Shown here in pieces: positions 2,775-49,710 of a stretch of 64,000 nucleotides of DNA. Every line of letters begins with the position of its first letter. Position 1 is the stretch's first letter. Origin of the DNA: a virus (lineage: Duplodnaviria > Heunggongvirae > Uroviricota > Caudoviricetes); the IMG/VR virus record IMGVR_UViG_3300030019_000001; one strand, given 5' to 3'. The notes under the pieces were generated by a model. The model was not told where the DNA came from and ran no database searches. It worked only from the letters and a program-made list of their open reading frames with translations. The position numbers and the translations under genes were made by a program.

Positions 2775-3881
2775 ATGAATTTATTAAATGTCACTCCAAC
2801 AAAAAATGTATCAGGTGCAGCAAAAAGCACTGAAAAGAGTCAATTATTAATTGATAAGCTAAAATTAATAGACTCTGATTTAAAAGAATTTATGTTAACA
2901 TTAAAAGTGTTAGAAAAAGCCAATATTATTAGATCTAATTCCTATTATGATGAAACCAAAACTAATTTTTCTACTAAAAGGGAAATTTTTAAACAGTTAG
3001 GATATTCAATCAACGAAAAAGTTACTGAATATAATAATATATTAGGCAGTTTGAAATCATATAATGTTAAGATTCCTGAAAACTTAATAAAATACAACTT
3101 GATAAAAAAAGAAAGAACTTCTTCAGGCGACAGATATGATCAAGTTGAAATTCAAATAGACAAAAATTACAATCAGTACCTTAACTCAAGATTAAATTCG
3201 AATCTTAGTTCTATTGTTCAAATTGCAGAGACTTTTGGATTTATGATTATTCCATTAGAATTAGCAAAAAATTCCATTCTGACTTGTGACCCAAAAAGGG
3301 CATCAAAAGATATTGAGTCTGCTATTAATAACTACAAAAATGCTAACTCAGAAAGAAACTTTTATATATTATGTCCTATTGGTTTTTATGATTTTGAAAA
3401 ACACGTAAAGAGTCAAAAATATTACGATGTATATTTTCCAAATTCATTATCAATGGTTAGTATGAATGTTGGTATGAATTTACCATTATTTAGAAGTATG
3501 TATGAAACAATGGTAAATCTTGGTAATAGAGTAGATGCACTTGAAAATTCAACAAAGATACTCAAAGAACAAGTAAAAGGAATCGAACAAAATATTGGTA
3601 GAATACAATCTGAACTTGAAAAAATATCAAAAGAACAAATTCGTCAACAGCAAATGGCTATACAGCAAGCAGAACAAATTAAAACATTGAAGCTTGAAGT
3701 TCAGCAAGCATTAGCAAGAAGGGAAGATCCTCTAATTTTTTCTACATCAAATATAATAACAGATTTTTCTGAAGATACTCATTGTGATGTTGGATTTGCA
3801 TGGGGTACAGAATTTCCAAAAGAATTCTTACAAATGATGAATGTAAAAGGAACAAATAAAACTAATTATTGGCTAAAATAA
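2775..3881 (+). CDS. hypothetical protein with C-terminal coiled coil
   Basis: 368 aa; heptad-like Q/E/K-rich segment at about aa 245-315. Confidence 0.75.
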   Translation: MNLLNVTPTKNVSGAAKSTEKSQLLIDKLKLIDSDLKEFMLTLKVLEKANIIRSNSYYDETKTNFSTKREIFKQLGYSINEKVTEYNNILGSLKSYNVKIPENLIKYNLIKKERTSSGDRYDQVEIQIDKNYNQYLNSRLNSNLSSIVQIAETFGFMIIPLELAKNSILTCDPKRASKDIESAINNYKNANSERNFYILCPIGFYDFEKHVKSQKYYDVYFPNSLSMVSMNVGMNLPLFRSMYETMVNLGNRVDALENSTKILKEQVKGIEQNIGRIQSELEKISKEQIRQQQMAIQQAEQIKTLKLEVQQALARREDPLIFSTSNIITDFSEDTHCDVGFAWGTEFPKEFLQMMNVKGTNKTNYWLK

Positions 3882-3888
3882 AAATGTT

Positions 3889-4188
3889 ATGAAATTAATT
3901 GACACTTGGGTAGTATATGATTTATGCGTATCTGAAATAATTGAAGTTTTTTCAGATAAAGATGAAGCAACTAAACTTTATGATATAAAGATTGAAGAAT
4001 ATTATATTAAAAATCGCAAATCATGCAATTTTTTTAAAAAAATGTCTGATGAACAATATGATGAACATTTTAAAACTCATATTTCAAGTATTGGTATTAA
4101 TGTTATTACGCTAGAAGAAGCTATTGATAATATTAAAGAAAGATTAACTGATAAATTTGAATCAATAATCTATCCAAATTATAATTAA
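3889..4188 (+). CDS. hypothetical protein
   Basis: ORF in co-oriented run. Confidence 0.65.
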   Translation: MKLIDTWVVYDLCVSEIIEVFSDKDEATKLYDIKIEEYYIKNRKSCNFFKKMSDEQYDEHFKTHISSIGINVITLEEAIDNIKERLTDKFESIIYPNYN

Positions 4189-4200
4189 AAATAAAAATAG

Positions 4201-4614
4201 ATGAATAGAACTTTTATACTAAGAGAGATAGAAAATATTAGAGAAGAAACTAATAATTTTACAGGTGATGAATTTAAAGATTTTTCATATGGAAATATTT
4301 GTAAAGATGCTAGTGATTTAGACTTTGTTAATATTGGTGATTATGAATTATTATTCTTTTATAAGAAATTAATAGATAGGTGGAATCCATCATTTTCTGA
4401 AAGTGGTGTTAGTAAATGTGTTTGTGGAGGTAATGCTGAAGTTAATTGTAGTCATACAGGATTAAATAATTGTGGTTATGCTTATGTTAAATGTAACACT
4501 TGTGGATTAGAAATGAGACAAAATTCTGAGGAATTAGTATATGATGATTTTACTCTTGATACATTGAGAGATGTTGTAATAAAAAGTTGGAACAAAACCA
4601 TGAATTGTAAATGA
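4201..4614 (+). CDS. protein with C-terminal Lar-like zinc ribbon
   Basis: CVCGGNAEV...VKCNTCG...SWN pattern. Confidence 0.45.
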   Translation: MNRTFILREIENIREETNNFTGDEFKDFSYGNICKDASDLDFVNIGDYELLFFYKKLIDRWNPSFSESGVSKCVCGGNAEVNCSHTGLNNCGYAYVKCNTCGLEMRQNSEELVYDDFTLDTLRDVVIKSWNKTMNCK

Positions 4615-4949
4615 TAGACAAAGAAAGATTAGAAGTCCACCTTAATAATGGTGAGATAGAATATGTTGTGTGTGCAGCAAATTGGATTGATGACGGAATT
4701 GATTATTTATATAAACCATATAATATAAATAAAGGAATTGTATATAGCGGTAATCGTCATCCTTCTATATTTGAACAAACAAATAGAATTTATCCATTTG
4801 AAAAATATGGTGAGTTAACAGTACAGGGATTTCTAACTACAAAAAATAGATTTCTAACAAGAGAAGAAGCATTAGAATTAGTTAAATCAAATGGGCAATT
4901 AAAAAATAAGTTATTAGGTAGTGAATTAACATCAGAAGATTTATGGTAA
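4611..4949 (+). CDS. conserved phage hypothetical protein
   Basis: VCAANW..GNRH..QGFLTTKNRFLTREEA resembles a widespread phage family. Confidence 0.6.
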   Translation: MIDKERLEVHLNNGEIEYVVCAANWIDDGIDYLYKPYNINKGIVYSGNRHPSIFEQTNRIYPFEKYGELTVQGFLTTKNRFLTREEALELVKSNGQLKNKLLGSELTSEDLW

Positions 4950-9192: not shown

Positions 9193-9292
9193 AGTTAGGT
9201 GACGAAATGGTTAGACGTTTAGGATTAAAATCCTATTAATGAGGTATCTCAGAGATTAATTTCTCATGCGGGTTCGAGTCCCGCCTTAACTA
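9193..9292 (+). tRNA. tRNA-Leu(TAA)-like, degenerate
   Basis: 7-bp acceptor AGTTAGG/CTTAACT, perfect T arm GCGGG-TTCGAGT-CCCGC, AC stem TAGGA/TCCTA with only a 6-nt loop TTAAAA, about 32-nt variable arm, no CCA. Confidence 0.6.
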
Positions 9293-9340
9293 CAGTTAAA
9301 ATATTAATATACCAAAAATATTTAAAATACTTAAAAAAAT

Positions 9341-9418
9341 GGAATAACGGATTTTATAGCCATTAAAGCGTCAATTTTAAATTGATTAAACTTGGGTTCG
9401 ACTCCCATAATTCCACCA
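9341..9418 (+). tRNA. atypical tRNA-like element, apparent anticodon TTA
   Basis: GGAAT../..ATTCC-A-CCA, T loop TTCGACT, AC stem GTCAA/TTGAT with loop TTTTAAA; non-canonical D arm. Confidence 0.45.
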
Positions 9419-9422
9419 AATA

Positions 9423-9512
9423 GAAGAATGTAAGTTAATCGGTAAACTAGTAGCCAAAAAAGCATTTGTAAAAAATTATAAATTATTACTGGTTCGAATC
9501 CAGTCATTCTTC
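9423..9512 (+). tRNA. pseudo-tRNA, undetermined isotype
   Basis: GAAGAATG/CATTCTTC acceptor, D stem AGTT/AACT, perfect T arm ACTGG-TTCGAAT-CCAGT; anticodon arm disrupted. Confidence 0.5.
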
Positions 9513-9704
9513 CTACAAAATTAAAAATATGAAAACTCATACTCAAAAAAAACAATACTTTATTTAAATTTATATTTGCTGACTATACAGATGTTAGAAT
9601 TGTATATACATTACAAGGTTATAGATATTTAAGAATTTTAGGATATTTATATTTGAAAATAGGTAGACACGGCGGTTATTATGCTGAATAATAAATTTTA
9701 AATT

Positions 9705-9983
9705 ATGAAAACAGAAGAATTAGATTTTAGTAGTTTTTTTGATATAGAAAATCAAAAAATAGAAGAATACACAGAAGAAGATGCTATTCTTGAGAGAACA
9801 TTTATGTTAGATTGTTGCTGTACATGTAAAAATTTTAAAAATTATTATGCATCTGCAGGAATATGCTTATTAGATAAAAACACAAAATCTAAGATAACTA
9901 GATTTGTAGATTATGACGGTCCTAAATGTAATAAATGGGAAGTTTGCGATCAAGATAAAGATTTTTTTGAATCTTTGAAATAA
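9705..9983 (+). CDS. Cys-rich hypothetical protein
   Basis: CCCTCKN..C..C..W. Confidence 0.65.
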   Translation: MKTEELDFSSFFDIENQKIEEYTEEDAILERTFMLDCCCTCKNFKNYYASAGICLLDKNTKSKITRFVDYDGPKCNKWEVCDQDKDFFESLK

Positions 9984-10005
9984 TATTAAAATATTAGATT
10001 TTTTA

Positions 10006-10037
10006 TTTGGTTAATCCATAATATAGTTGTATATTTG
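10006..10037 (+). promoter_or_regulatory. Bacteroidota-type promoter
   Basis: TTTG(10006)-20 nt-TATATTTG(10030). Confidence 0.75.
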
Positions 10038-10065
10038 TACATTATATTATGGATTTATTATTAAT

Positions 10066-10503
10066 ATGAAAATTAAGAATATGAAATATAGACTACAAAC
10101 ATGGAAATTGACAGTAGAAGGTGAATATTTAACAGAAATTGAAGCAATATTAGATTTATCTGATAAATATTTGAGATGTTCAAAATGCGATTTACCTGGA
10201 GAATCATTATCAGAATTATTAAGTAAAGATTTTAATGTTGTGCATGGCAATTCACCAACAATGGTAAAACTTGTTAATGATATAGAGAATGTTAATTTTG
10301 AAGTTTCCACAAATAAAAAGACAAGAACAATTACAGATATTTCAAAAACTGTTTGGTTATATACAGAAGAAATTATATATAACAGACCTCAATGGATAGA
10401 AAAACAACAAATTCGGATATATCCATTTAAAACTGAACATTGGTGGGATACTCCTTCTGATTTTACATATAATGTAGATGCTAAATATGAAATCTTAAAT
10501 TAA
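10066..10503 (+). CDS. hypothetical protein
   Basis: ATG 10066 preferred because the promoter overlaps the 10027 start. Confidence 0.65.
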   Translation: MKIKNMKYRLQTWKLTVEGEYLTEIEAILDLSDKYLRCSKCDLPGESLSELLSKDFNVVHGNSPTMVKLVNDIENVNFEVSTNKKTRTITDISKTVWLYTEEIIYNRPQWIEKQQIRIYPFKTEHWWDTPSDFTYNVDAKYEILN

Positions 10504-45527: not shown

Positions 45528-45866
45528 ATGAGTAAAACTATTATTACAAAAAGTGGTATTAAGTTTATAACAAGCATAAATAGAGAACATCTAATTGAAA
45601 CTTTATGTAGAGAAATTGGTGCGAAATTTCAAGATAATGAATATTGTCAAAATGAGCACTATGCAGATATGGCTCATGAAATGTCAAAAGATGATGCATT
45701 AGATACTGCAACAAAATTAAAATTGTTTTATAATAGAGGAGATGAGATTTTAGAAAAATATCATTATTTCTTTTCAAAAGATTATACAAGTAAAAACTTT
45801 AATGATTTTTTATTGGAAATTATTGAAACACTTGAGAATTCAGATGGATATGAATGCGTATATTAA
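45528..45866 (+). CDS. hypothetical protein
   Basis: Intact ORF behind the first promoter unit. Confidence 0.7.
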   Translation: MSKTIITKSGIKFITSINREHLIETLCREIGAKFQDNEYCQNEHYADMAHEMSKDDALDTATKLKLFYNRGDEILEKYHYFFSKDYTSKNFNDFLLEIIETLENSDGYECVY

Positions 45867-46172
45867 AACTGAAACTTTAACATTAAATATTTGGTAGTAT
45901 CAAAAACTTTTATTAATTTTGTACTACAATAAAAAACAAAAAACTTCAAGTAAGAGTACTTGAAAAAGTTCAAAACTTTAACATTAAATATTTGGTAAAA
46001 CAAAAAACTTTTTGTAATTTTGCACTACAATATCAAAAGAAATATAATCACAAAAATTAAATTTCAATTGAAAAAAAGTTCAAAACTTTAACATTAAATA
46101 TTTGGTAAAACAAAAAACTTTTTGTAATTTTGAACTACAATAAAAACAAATCAAATTTCAGATTGAAAAAAA

Positions 46173-47922
46173 TCTAATGGTATAAAAACCTCTCAAAGCT
46201 TGCAAGAGAATGATAGTGCAAATGAACACACTTAGATTAAAGTAATCACAATTTAGTAGTAAGGAAACCACCCTTAATCTTGAACAAGATTATAGTGAAA
46301 CTGAAAATACATAAATTTAATGTTACAGAAGTAAATATAACAAATGAAAAAATGTTATTTCTAATCTGTGAAGATAAAAAGAACTGAAAAATGATTTGAT
46401 TTTTTAAAACTCTTGTAAACGTACTTGAGTAAAAAATGTAGAAAAAATATCAAAAAATATTTGGTAAAACAAAAAACTTTTTGTATATTTGTACTACAAT
46501 AATTTAAATCAAAAAATCAGATTTAAACAAGAAATATCAGCAATATCTGAAATCAGAGTGTATATGTTTGTAACAAAATATATATGAACCAGATGAATTT
46601 GATGCTAATAGTGGTGAGTTAATGATAATGAAAATTATCAAAGATGAAAAGTCCATTGAAATAGATATGAGAACTGTAGAACTTATCTTGTTATAAATGT
46701 AAATAGTAACTACACCGTGGAAATTACCTATCAAATTAATTTTTGATGATGTGTGAACCTAATGTCAGATGATCAGTGACTGACTGCTATTATTTCTCTA
46801 CAAGGACTGACTATTGATTAAATTATAAAAATGATGAAGATAAGCACACAGGGTGCAGCACGATTCGAATTGTGCAGAAGGCAAGTGTTACTGACACTGG
46901 GTTCAACTCCATCTATCTTCACTATGAATATTAATTTTAACACTGAAACACTGACTTGTCAGAAGAAGTAAGTTCCTTGATTATTATTCATAACAAAAAC
47001 AAGTAGGAGTACTTGAAAAAATAGTTCAAACTTTAACATTAAATATTTGGTAAAACAAAAAACTTTTTGTAATTTTGAACTACAATAAAAAAGCAAAACA
47101 TATATCAGATTTAATAGATAATCTAATGGTATAAAATACCACCTTGAAGCTTGCAAAAGGAGATAGTGCAAATGAACACACTTAGATTGATAATAATACA
47201 TTTCGCAGATTTGTAAAGTTACAAGAATAAATATGACAAATGAAAGTTTATTTTTCTAAGCTGAGAAGCTAACAGAACTTATAAATGACTTGGTTTTTTA
47301 ATACTCATTCAAGTAAGAGTACTTGAAAAAGTTCAAAACTTTAACATTAAATATTTGGTAAAACAAAAAACTTTTTGTAATTTTGAACTACAATAATGAA
47401 ACAAATCAAATTTCAGATTGAAGCAATGAAAAATGTAATGGTATAAAATACCACCTTGAAGCTTGCAAAAGGAGATAGTGCAAATGAACACACTTACATA
47501 TTAATTATCTTGCTTATACAATGAGAAATATAATGGTATAGAAACCACCTTGAAGCTTGCAAAAGGAGATAGTGCAAATGAACACACTTATATATTTCAA
47601 ATACAATGAAAAATGTTGATACAGAAATCACCTTGAAGCTTGCAATAGGTGTATAACTATAAATGAACACATGTAGAAATAAACTAAATTGTAAATGAAA
47701 CTGAAAATCTAATGGTATAGAAACCACCTTGAAGCTTGCAAAAGGAGATAGTGCAATTAAACACACTTAGATAGTAAAAGCAATGAAAAATCTAATGGTA
47801 CAGAAACCACCTTGAAGCTTGCAAAAGGAGATAGTGCAACTAAACACACTTAGATATTAATGAAATTGAAAAAGTAATAAAAATAATCAAAGGCAAAAGC
47901 CAACTTGAAGCTTGCAAAAGTG
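46173..47922 (+). repeat. eight copies of a roughly 60-65 bp structured repeat
   Basis: Consensus AATGGTATAGAAACCACCTTGAAGCTTGCAAAAGGAGATAGTGCAAATGAACACACTTAG at 46173, 47122, 47434, 47531, 47614, 47708, 47791 and partial 47899. Confidence 0.85.
46835..46922 (+). ncRNA. tRNA-like cloverleaf with 8-bp acceptor and long variable arm
   Basis: TGAAGATA/TATCTTCA; GCAC/GTGC; GCACG/TGTGC; AGTGT/ACACT; TTCAACT loop with weak T stem. Confidence 0.35.
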
Positions 47923-48429
47923 TACGATTAATATTACAGAAGTAAATGTTGCAAATGTAATACAAATTTAAGGATTTATATTATAACAGTAAATATAATG
48001 AACATACCAAATGTTTATTGTTCCACTGAAAAAAGTTCTGAAAAGAAAAAAATGGACTGAAATAGATTTGTGTCATTTTTCAAGTAAACGTACTTGAAAC
48101 AACAAGAAACAACACATTTAGATTGATTAGTATATATAACTATGAAAATGGTTAATTTACAAGTTTAAAAGGTTAATTCCTTTTATTAGAACTAACTTCT
48201 TTTAGTTAAGAAGTGATAGTATAAATTTTTACTACAATCTAAATGTTTGTTTTTTATTAAAAGCGTTCTTTGTAAAAATTGAAAATATTTGGCTGTCTGT
48301 AGTCATTAAATAAACTACGAAAGTAGGATAAAGTGAATATGTAGTTGTTTCTATATATTTGCGACATTAAATTATTTATTAATCAACAGATACAACAATT
48401 ATTAATTTGACACATTTTTTTGTGTGTAA

Positions 48430-49275
48430 TTGATTTTGCTTCGGTAAGATTCTTCACATACTCATTAATATGAATAGTTAATAGTTAGTTAATTTGTTAT
48501 TAATACATTATTTAGTGTTTGAGCAGACAATCAGGATATCATTAAACCTTAATTATCGAGGGTAACACTGTAGAGAAAGTGGTTTAATGCAAAGGCTATG
48601 TGGGTAGTCTAAGTGAGATGGGAACATCAATAAGAATAACCTGAAGGATTATTGCAAGAAATACGATTTCCAGTTGTATAATTGCGTTGTCCATTATGAG
48701 AGTTAGCTTAAAACCGAAAGGTAATATTAGATTGTAATACAATGTACAGGTGGTGCTGTTATTAAGGTTACCTTAGCATTACCAAGTGCTATGAGAGTAT
48801 CTTAGTTGACTTAAAATATGGAGATAGGGATATCTCAGAGAGTAGTTTAGTATATTTCCGTTCAAAAGATGGAGACGCTGGTTGTCGAACCACTACTTTC
48901 ATTATCCACAAAACAAACTTTAAATTGCAAATTTAATGCACAATTAAAATAAAACAAATAAAGGAAAAGTGTTCGACTGTTGTTGATGAAAGGTGACTAC
49001 TAGTTATGAGATGAAAATCGTCGTAGCCGTGAAGAACCCCAAGTTTGACATGATTTTCAGAAAAATTCCTTAAATCTGTAGCAAGATTGAGTTTGGGTGG
49101 CAACCTAGATAGGTAATAAGTACTGAGAGAGTAATTAACAACAAAAGGATTAGTTAATCTAATTGACTGTCATTGAGAATTACTAATGTTAGGGAAACCA
49201 ATATTAGTGGAAAGAAAGTAGAAACAATAATAACTTTTTAAGATTCTTCTGTATAAGGTATATTTCTCAGCCTAT
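48430..49275 (+). ncRNA. large structured ncRNA candidate (GOLLD/ROOL size class)
   Basis: ORF-free, GC-richer, one UUCG- and four GNRA-capped hairpins, followed by a terminator; boundaries approximate. Confidence 0.65.
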
Positions 49276-49282
49276 TACAAAT

Positions 49283-49322
49283 AAAAACACTACTTAATTC
49301 AATATTAAGTAGTGTTTTTTTT
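49283..49322 (+). terminator. intrinsic terminator
   Basis: 16-bp stem AAAAACACTACTTAAT/ATTAAGTAGTGTTTTT plus T run. Confidence 0.85.
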
Positions 49323-49614
49323 CATTTATTTATTTTTAATAAAAAAATATTAAAATAGGGTTGAGTTCACCCAAATTAACGCTTCAGGAGAGTAAATCCA
49401 TTAGATCCTCTATGAATGAAGAAAAAAAAGTAAAATATTAATTAAAATTTAATGAATTTAATTATTTTTTATCATTTTACCGAACTATCTAACAACAAAA
49501 GAAGTTTAATTATTTCTTAGATTGTATTAGAAGAATACTAATTCAAATGTTAGTGAGAAAAAAATAATAGTTTCTAAAGTTCTTCTCTATAATGCTGTAT
49601 TCTCAAGCAATATT

Positions 49615-49656
49615 AAAAAAAATCCTATCTAATTGAAAAATTAGATAGGATTTTTT
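49615..49656. terminator. bidirectional intrinsic terminator
   Basis: AAAAAATCCTATCTAAT-6 nt-ATTAGATAGGATTTTTT. Confidence 0.8.
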
Positions 49657-49657
49657 C

Positions 49658-49710
49658 GTTATAAGCTATTTCACTTATAAACATAAGTTATAAGCTATTT
49701 CACTTATAAA
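49658..49710. repeat. 24-bp direct repeat, each copy a 7-8-7 inverted repeat
   Basis: GTTATAAGCTATTTCACTTATAAA at 49658 and 49687. Confidence 0.75.

Follow-up and report, generated by a model that had tools for sequence, protein, structure and literature searches.

The env-38 GOLLD RNA, with a length of 833 nt, has been resolved by cryo-EM as a 14-mer with D7 symmetry (PDB 9MEE; Kretsch et al. 2025, PMC12286853), and for the 700-nt GOLLD of Streptococcus agalactiae a dodecamer (PDB 9L0R) as well as a decamer of the 3' domain (9LMF) are described (review PMC12990946). During lysis the amount of GOLLD increases, and ribosomes are pulled down with it (PMC12286853); some GOLLDs carry an embedded tRNA (PMC12990946). 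ROOL is alike in its way of working, as a large phage RNA that forms an RNA-only cage, but it is unrelated to GOLLD in sequence and fold.

Here we analyzed a window of 64,000 nt (the whole stretch of DNA under study), taken from a 330-kb IMG/VR virus record that is estimated to be 46% complete and belongs to a very large, AT-rich phage. An earlier note, made from the letters of this DNA, had pointed to a non-coding RNA of roughly 850 nt beginning at 48430. We found that this gene-free stretch is a complete GOLLD RNA gene of the env-38 type, located on the plus strand at 48289-49273 (~985 nt). Taken as one claim, its identity as a GOLLD and its being a functional, cage-forming RNA are considered probable. 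The GOLLD family as such is known, and what is added here are minor variants: the copy is an otherwise ordinary member of the family, except for a very long helical arm (P5) and an apparently swapped tail end. The features discussed in the following are:

48222-48229, plus strand: degenerate Bacteroidota-type -7 element (single mismatch) that lies in register with the tail end of the promoter repeats further upstream (family D10)
48265-48273, plus strand: boxA-like motif in the leader, from homolog leaders
48289-49273, plus strand: GOLLD RNA gene of the env-38 type, ~985 nt, from Rfam (3' half) and from homologs and collinearity with env-38 (5' half)
48289-48362, plus strand: 5' head (P1-P4) with the L3 GAAA loop (48319-48322), the donor of inter-chain bridge B1, from homolog identity and covarying helices
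48363-48519, plus strand: P5 rod, 61 bp, irregular, with a UUCG cap (48440-48443), fold z -5.2
48520-48837, plus strand: remaining 5' cap domain (P6-P13) with the motifs of bridges B2 to B5, from covariation on alignment A2
48838-49273, plus strand: conserved 3' domain (P14-P27) with an A-rich linker at ~48900-48960, from RF02032
49040-49330, plus strand: GOLLD 3' end plus terminator as a putative foreign allele, with an L21a insertion and a longer P24, from the drop in identity to relatives
49283-49319, plus strand: intrinsic terminator hairpin with 16 pairs and U-tract, 10 nt past the GOLLD end, from a terminator scan that scored both strands
49490-49612, plus strand: putative relic of the ancestral GOLLD 3' end (P22-P27), first ~70 nt decayed, from a second partial GOLLD match
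49617-49656, strand unspecified: putative ancestral terminator hairpin with 18 perfect pairs (inverted repeat I12)

Identity and structure of the RNA

In the Rfam search RF02032 (GOLLD) matched 48838-49273 on the plus strand over its full length (model positions 1-416) with 243.3 bits and an E-value of 6.6e-68, the gathering score of the family being 150 bits. What the earlier note suspected to be a large, ornate phage RNA similar to GOLLD or ROOL is hence a GOLLD; the match confirms the RNA and takes away the novelty of its class. No match of the GOLLD model was obtained in 14 control genomes. As the model has 416 positions and covers only the 3' domain, the 550-nt 5' part falls outside of it. 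Homologs were gathered by short-pattern scans, and both halves of the RNA were matched in about 60 phage loci. These homologs share an extra block (48275-48365) located 5' of the start given before; about 50 of the phage homologs have the 5' head (48289-48362), and the env-38 GOLLD starts with the same 5' block (supplement of PMC12286853, machine-read and compared by eye), the residue numbers of the motif table being in agreement. Therefore the gene spans about 48289-49273. The boundary at 48430 falls inside a long rod that is tipped by the first hairpin of the earlier note, whereas the conserved RNA begins at ~48289, and ~850 nt is too small a size. Measured from anchor to anchor, the RNA is 980 nt long here compared to a median of 800 nt (range 782-848) among the remaining homologs. 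None of the viral contigs scanned was matched by a long gapped 3' pattern, a metagenome scan yielded only further copies of the two close relatives already found, and a further viral scan yielded one more copy (L262), which is identical to homolog L108. Weak snoRNA and plastid Rfam matches in the 5' region as well as cyanophage matches of 50 nt were rejected as chance.

The general character of the stretch had been described correctly. No ORF of at least 60 aa overlaps it, the longest Met-initiated frame in 48289-49322 having 37 aa, and the GC content is 31.5% compared to 24.1% in the contig, a value reached by only 2.6% of equal-sized genome windows. Compared to shuffled sequences, the fold of the plus strand is better (z -3.6) while that of the minus strand is not (z -1.3), which together with the orientation of the GOLLD match supports the proposed plus-strand RNA.

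In the 5' head the columns 48283-48342 show 74-78% identity to homologs, and the L3 GAAA loop is kept in 34 of 35 of them. For the covariation analysis among homologs, which the earlier note had proposed for the case of no Rfam match, we used alignment A2, composed of 36 diverse 5' domains. The structure was derived from the same alignment that was used for the test, so the following values favour structure: in the consensus, 97.4% of the cells of 105 tested pairs are paired and 84 of these pairs change on both sides. None of 500 shuffles reached the observed value and slid controls gave 35-41%. The hairpins that had been picked out by eye at 48617 (GGAA loop 48621-24), 48713, 48774 and 48821 exist in the sequence and are consensus helices; their loops correspond to B3, L11a, B5 and B4, which in env-38 either form cage contacts or are conserved. 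In L10 one base is missing in this copy. In the 3' domain, the linker between P14 and P15 is A-rich and unpaired in the Rfam alignment, with a dip of conservation at 48913. The hairpin at 49073 and the 11-bp GAAA-capped stem at 49182-49208, the latter with one bulge, were found as described. For a further hairpin assumed at 49012/49052-49059 only the sequence complementarity holds: its pairing is absent from the family model and the two strands sit in separate helices of the Rfam alignment.

Judged by sequence, most cage-contact motifs appear to be present in this copy. The B1 GAAA loop and the B9 motif are found by comparison with the published bridge table, and the B2 and B6 motifs are visible in alignments. 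Likewise present are the GGAA loop of B3, the loop 48751-54 with 48781-84 (B5) and the kissing pair 48963-64/49039-40 (B7), which covaries as GG:CC, GC:GC and UC:GA across homologs; for B4, 48669-71 pairs with 48828-30 and three of five pairs are kept. The copy appears to have the motifs of bridges B1-B7 and B9 in common with env-38, and it shares with it the 3' domain, a 5' domain of the same type that is collinear from the first conserved bases, and an A-rich linker without tRNA. It differs from env-38 in being ~150 nt longer, with a P5 rod of 61 bp compared to about 9 bp, in a longer GAAA-capped stem in place of L24 and a 3-nt insertion in L21a, in not lying downstream of tRNA-Met, and in a probably recombinant 3' end with a relic behind it. 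With the S. agalactiae GOLLD it shares the 3' domain and the L3, L14, L15/L20, L21 and L24 contacts as described in the review (compared by description), but the S. agalactiae RNA is without P9, P11a-c and P21b, while the copy analyzed here has the env-38 complement. By analogy to these solved relatives, we think it quite likely that the folded RNA would self-assemble into a hollow cage of 12 to 14 chains. A homolog in the 635-kb uncultured phage LR745206.1 (L003, Rfam match 287 bits) has in common the huge phage, the type of 5' domain, Bacteroidota-type promoters and a boxA-like leader; unlike the present copy it lies among tRNAs and has a short P5 and a canonical L24. By eye, the same tRNA-like sequence is apparently duplicated on either side of that GOLLD (about 3550-3650 and 4760-4845 of the locus). 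In another locus (L048), two inverted GOLLD copies with identical scores (4080-4890 and 9631-10441) lie on one 14.5-kb contig, probably due to an assembly palindrome.

Leader, transcription and host

boxA loads NusB-S10 for the antitermination of rRNA transcription. A boxA-like motif is present within 160 nt upstream of the GOLLD in 51 of 52 copies, compared to 7% of background windows, and it resembles the rrn boxA of B. subtilis, which binds NusB (PMC13753749). In many homologs a TANNTTTG element, which is the Bacteroidota -7 promoter consensus (PMC6847099), is found 35-36 nt above the boxA-like motif; it also occurs in the upstream repeats here. In about 50 homologous loci (e.g. L015, L050, L074, L092) the leader has a conserved architecture, in which the -7 promoter is followed after 35-36 nt by the boxA-like motif and a hairpin of variable length (0-80 nt) then precedes the GOLLD. 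By analogy to rRNA operons, the boxA-like leader suggests that GOLLD is made in the manner of rRNA by use of host Nus antitermination; in the literature searched, we found no paper stating Nus antitermination of these phage RNAs.

At the present locus the -7 element is degenerate, and the closest exact -7 element that is accompanied by a -33 element lies at 47378. Between 45870 and 47400 there are six near-identical Bacteroidota-type promoters (-33 and exact -7), none of which is followed by an ORF; the promoter repeats end at 47385. This six-promoter form is found nowhere else in the 330-kb contig and is conserved, with varying copy number, in the close relatives L081-L086 and L108. Fewer sites than in shuffled sequences were obtained in a sigma-70 promoter scan. 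No scored terminator lies between the promoter array and the GOLLD. Since the local -7 element is degenerate, six exact promoters lie upstream and no terminator precedes the GOLLD, the RNA may form the 3' portion of a longer non-coding transcript. The mechanism we propose starts with the host RNA polymerase, which would transcribe the gene from upstream Bacteroidota-type promoters, probably from the repeats ending at 47385 because the local promoter is degenerate. As in rRNA operons, the boxA leader would then bring in the Nus antitermination complex of the host and thereby let the long untranslated RNA escape Rho, and the transcript would end at the 16-bp terminator (49283-49319), which had been recognized before and is confirmed by our scan, and then fold.

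The Bacteroidota -7 consensus and the rarity of Shine-Dalgarno-like words, which are found before no more than 5 of the contig's 387 starts, suggest that the host is probably a Bacteroidota bacterium. The 5'-head pattern matched nothing in GTDB genomes, so there is no prophage copy that would name the host, and a search of the amidase for a host clue was empty. In one permafrost metatranscriptome 0.22 of the sampled words were found, and its contigs cannot show strand or level; 23 RNA runs with a word share below 0.2 were excluded as evidence of expression or habitat.

Several further elements were observed around the leader. A repeat of 60-70 nt, whose 11-nt loop is fixed, occurs eight to nine times between the promoters and the GOLLD (46171-47920) and is present in relatives as well. 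Its consensus fold consists of three small hairpins, in which covariation is weak (3 of 11 pairs). The repeat has no Rfam match, and its copies may be either a small RNA array or binding sites at the DNA level. An operator-like palindrome of 20 bp with a variable 4-nt centre is found just upstream of promoter copies at 45945, 46998, 47308 and 48079 (also at about 46410). Within the repeat array, a unique, GC-richer and ORF-free stretch (46530-46960) with a GC content of up to 33% is ~80-90% conserved in relatives; it is possibly a further structured RNA and has no Rfam match. An upstream ORF of 112 aa has no relative by tblastn. Between 37400 and 53000 there are many small minus-strand ORFs with the N-terminal motif MKY(I/L)K(K/T)FE and the C-terminal motif KFN(I/L), several of them with ankyrin-like repeats.

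The long P5 arm and the possible role of the proposed cage

Nearly all of the extra length of this GOLLD is accounted for by P5, whose tip is the UUCG hairpin seen before at 48436. P5 has a length of 157-159 nt here and in L108, 63 nt in the close relative L081/L086 and 14-30 nt in the rest of the clade. In L108 it forms the same rod with 61 pairs (z -6.1) and 113 of 155 identical positions (73%), while in L086 it has 25 pairs with the same UUCG cap. The full 61-bp rod is known from two independent sequences only, as L262 is identical to L108. When the rod is compared with that of L108 by sequence alignment, two pairs show a two-sided change, eight a one-sided change and 11 are broken. From the pairing in the two rods, selection for the pairing of P5 is likely. 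Selection for its length would go further than two independent full rods and few two-sided changes allow. A-minor contacts are received by the base of P5 in env-38; this base is kept here, and none of the distal P5/L5 residues of env-38 (78-96) appears in the published motif or bridge tables; therefore P5 has grown at a free end. We infer that the extension is most simply tolerated growth that is kept base-paired for stability, so that each chain of the proposed cage would carry a rod of roughly 170 angstrom, grown distally away from all mapped contacts.

What such a cage might do can be discussed by analogy. The reported rise during lysis, the ribosome pull-down and the association with tRNAs let us tentatively suggest a very abundant, nuclease-resistant scaffold of the infection stage that could protect or sequester the translation machinery (tRNAs, ribosomal particles) and thereby favour phage gene expression, a role to which we give somewhat less than even weight. 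The closeness to tRNAs that the earlier note mentioned as frequent for GOLLD and ROOL does not apply to this copy: no tRNA is present in or near it and the nearest tRNA-like genes are about 39 and 63 kb away, which weakens a role in tRNA storage. Likewise, 26 of 45 homologous loci are without tRNA or tmRNA within the DNA available per locus. Two tRNA-like genes at 9193-9512 have enlarged variable or anticodon regions, where ARAGORN reads short introns.

It is also conceivable, though unlikely, that the cage is a decoy, which together with its long AU-rich P5 rods would soak up anti-phage RNases, toxins or double-stranded-RNA-binding proteins of the host while infection proceeds. The graded growth of P5 (about 7, 25 and 61 pairs), the kept UUCG cap, the retention of pairing at 73% identity, the high multivalency of 12-14 rods per cage and the lack of a tRNA island at this locus would fit such a function. 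However, the 61-bp rod occurs in two independent sequences while about 50 other homologs do without it, the two-sided changes are few compared to the one-sided changes and broken pairs, and no binding partner is known. A more specific combination is quite improbable in our view, namely that P5 is selected in this phage lineage as a long double-stranded arm, so that a cage with 12-14 rods binds either a defence nuclease or a double-stranded-RNA-binding protein of the host, and that in addition the 3' ring is a module exchanged by recombination among phages, in which the cage halves touch through an alternative L24 contact.

The atypical 3' end and the partial copy behind it

Outside of P5, the identity to the two nearest relatives is 85-98% up to ~49040 and drops to 65-83% after this position. 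Both relatives are syntenic on both sides and have a single GOLLD 3' end each. In the window, the genome search returned a second GOLLD match at 49507-49608 (model positions 306-415, 30.8 bits), which belongs to the relic. The relic and the hairpin at 49617-49656 are 82-83% identical to the 3' end and terminator of the relatives, and the relic compares to the main copy with 58%. When aligned to L108, 43 of its first 71 nt are identical (61%), with the conserved motifs lost, followed by 52 of 52 identical positions. These last 52 nt (49561-49612) match L108 completely although adjacent genes are about 82% identical. The contrast between the decayed start and the identical end may be due to later recombination or to selection on the end of a convergent transcript; no further explanation was found. 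The hairpin at 49617-49656 is identical to L108 in 45 of 48 positions, where the GOLLD directly precedes it, and probably still ends the convergent minus-strand genes. Just past this hairpin, a 24-nt direct repeat in two copies (49658-49710) is present, as it is in the relatives. The idea of a mini-GOLLD with preserved structure was not supported for the relic: 13 of its pairs are broken, with 10.9 expected on average under the null (P 0.90, the alignment being imperfect). The relic also lacks its own exact -7 promoter.

The simplest reading of these sequences is that a piece of the GOLLD of another phage entered the locus by recombination, together with its terminator and 160 nt of flanking sequence, and displaced the ancestral end, which would have been left behind as the relic. 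A metagenome scan found no donor of the foreign 3' end. Two sites that form contacts between the cage halves are altered within this part: L21a (B8) carries the 3-nt insertion, and the donor of B10, L24, which is a pentaloop in all 21 aligned homologs, is replaced by the longer stem P24 (49182-49208).

A mis-assembly of two co-occurring phage strains, which would make the foreign 3' end and the relic an artefact, is very unlikely. The record is a metagenomic assembly, and neither a donor nor another contig with the same arrangement was found; however, a mis-join would leave an intact copy, whereas the first 70 nt of the relic are without the conserved motifs, its 13 broken pairs are no better than random, and 160 nt of unrelated sequence separate the two 3' ends. 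Equally slight is the chance that the copy is decaying and no longer closes a cage. The degenerate local promoter, the altered L21a and L24, the missing base in L10 and the AT drift could be seen in this way, but the identity to relatives is 88-98% in the 5' core compared to 60-71% in the neighbouring rod and about 75-87% in flanking genes, the score of the full model is well above the cut-off, the replaced helices still pair and the terminator is intact. Another class of large RNA or a new one, for which only the size, the phage origin and the lack of an Rfam match in the 5' half could speak (no large-RNA family matched 45800-48900 at E-values up to 5), is refuted, because GOLLD is the sole Rfam match in the region and the 5' half, outside the 3'-only model, matches the env-38 GOLLD; at gathering score ROOL, OLE, group I/II introns (of which the earlier note had recognized neither a core nor flanking exons), RNase P and tmRNA have no match within the window, and no tmRNA was found by ARAGORN.

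The question of GOLLD's role does not become testable through a further metagenomic copy of an uncultured phage, and the additions are modest. The series of P5 arms with about 7, 25 and 61 pairs marks a place where the cage tolerates an insertion of 140 nt, which is useful for the engineering of RNA cages, and the natural chimera with its apparently swapped 3' end and altered L21a and L24 is a ready test of the interchangeability of cage contacts. For the family, the presence of a boxA-like leader in 51 of 52 copies points to an rRNA-like production of these phage RNAs.
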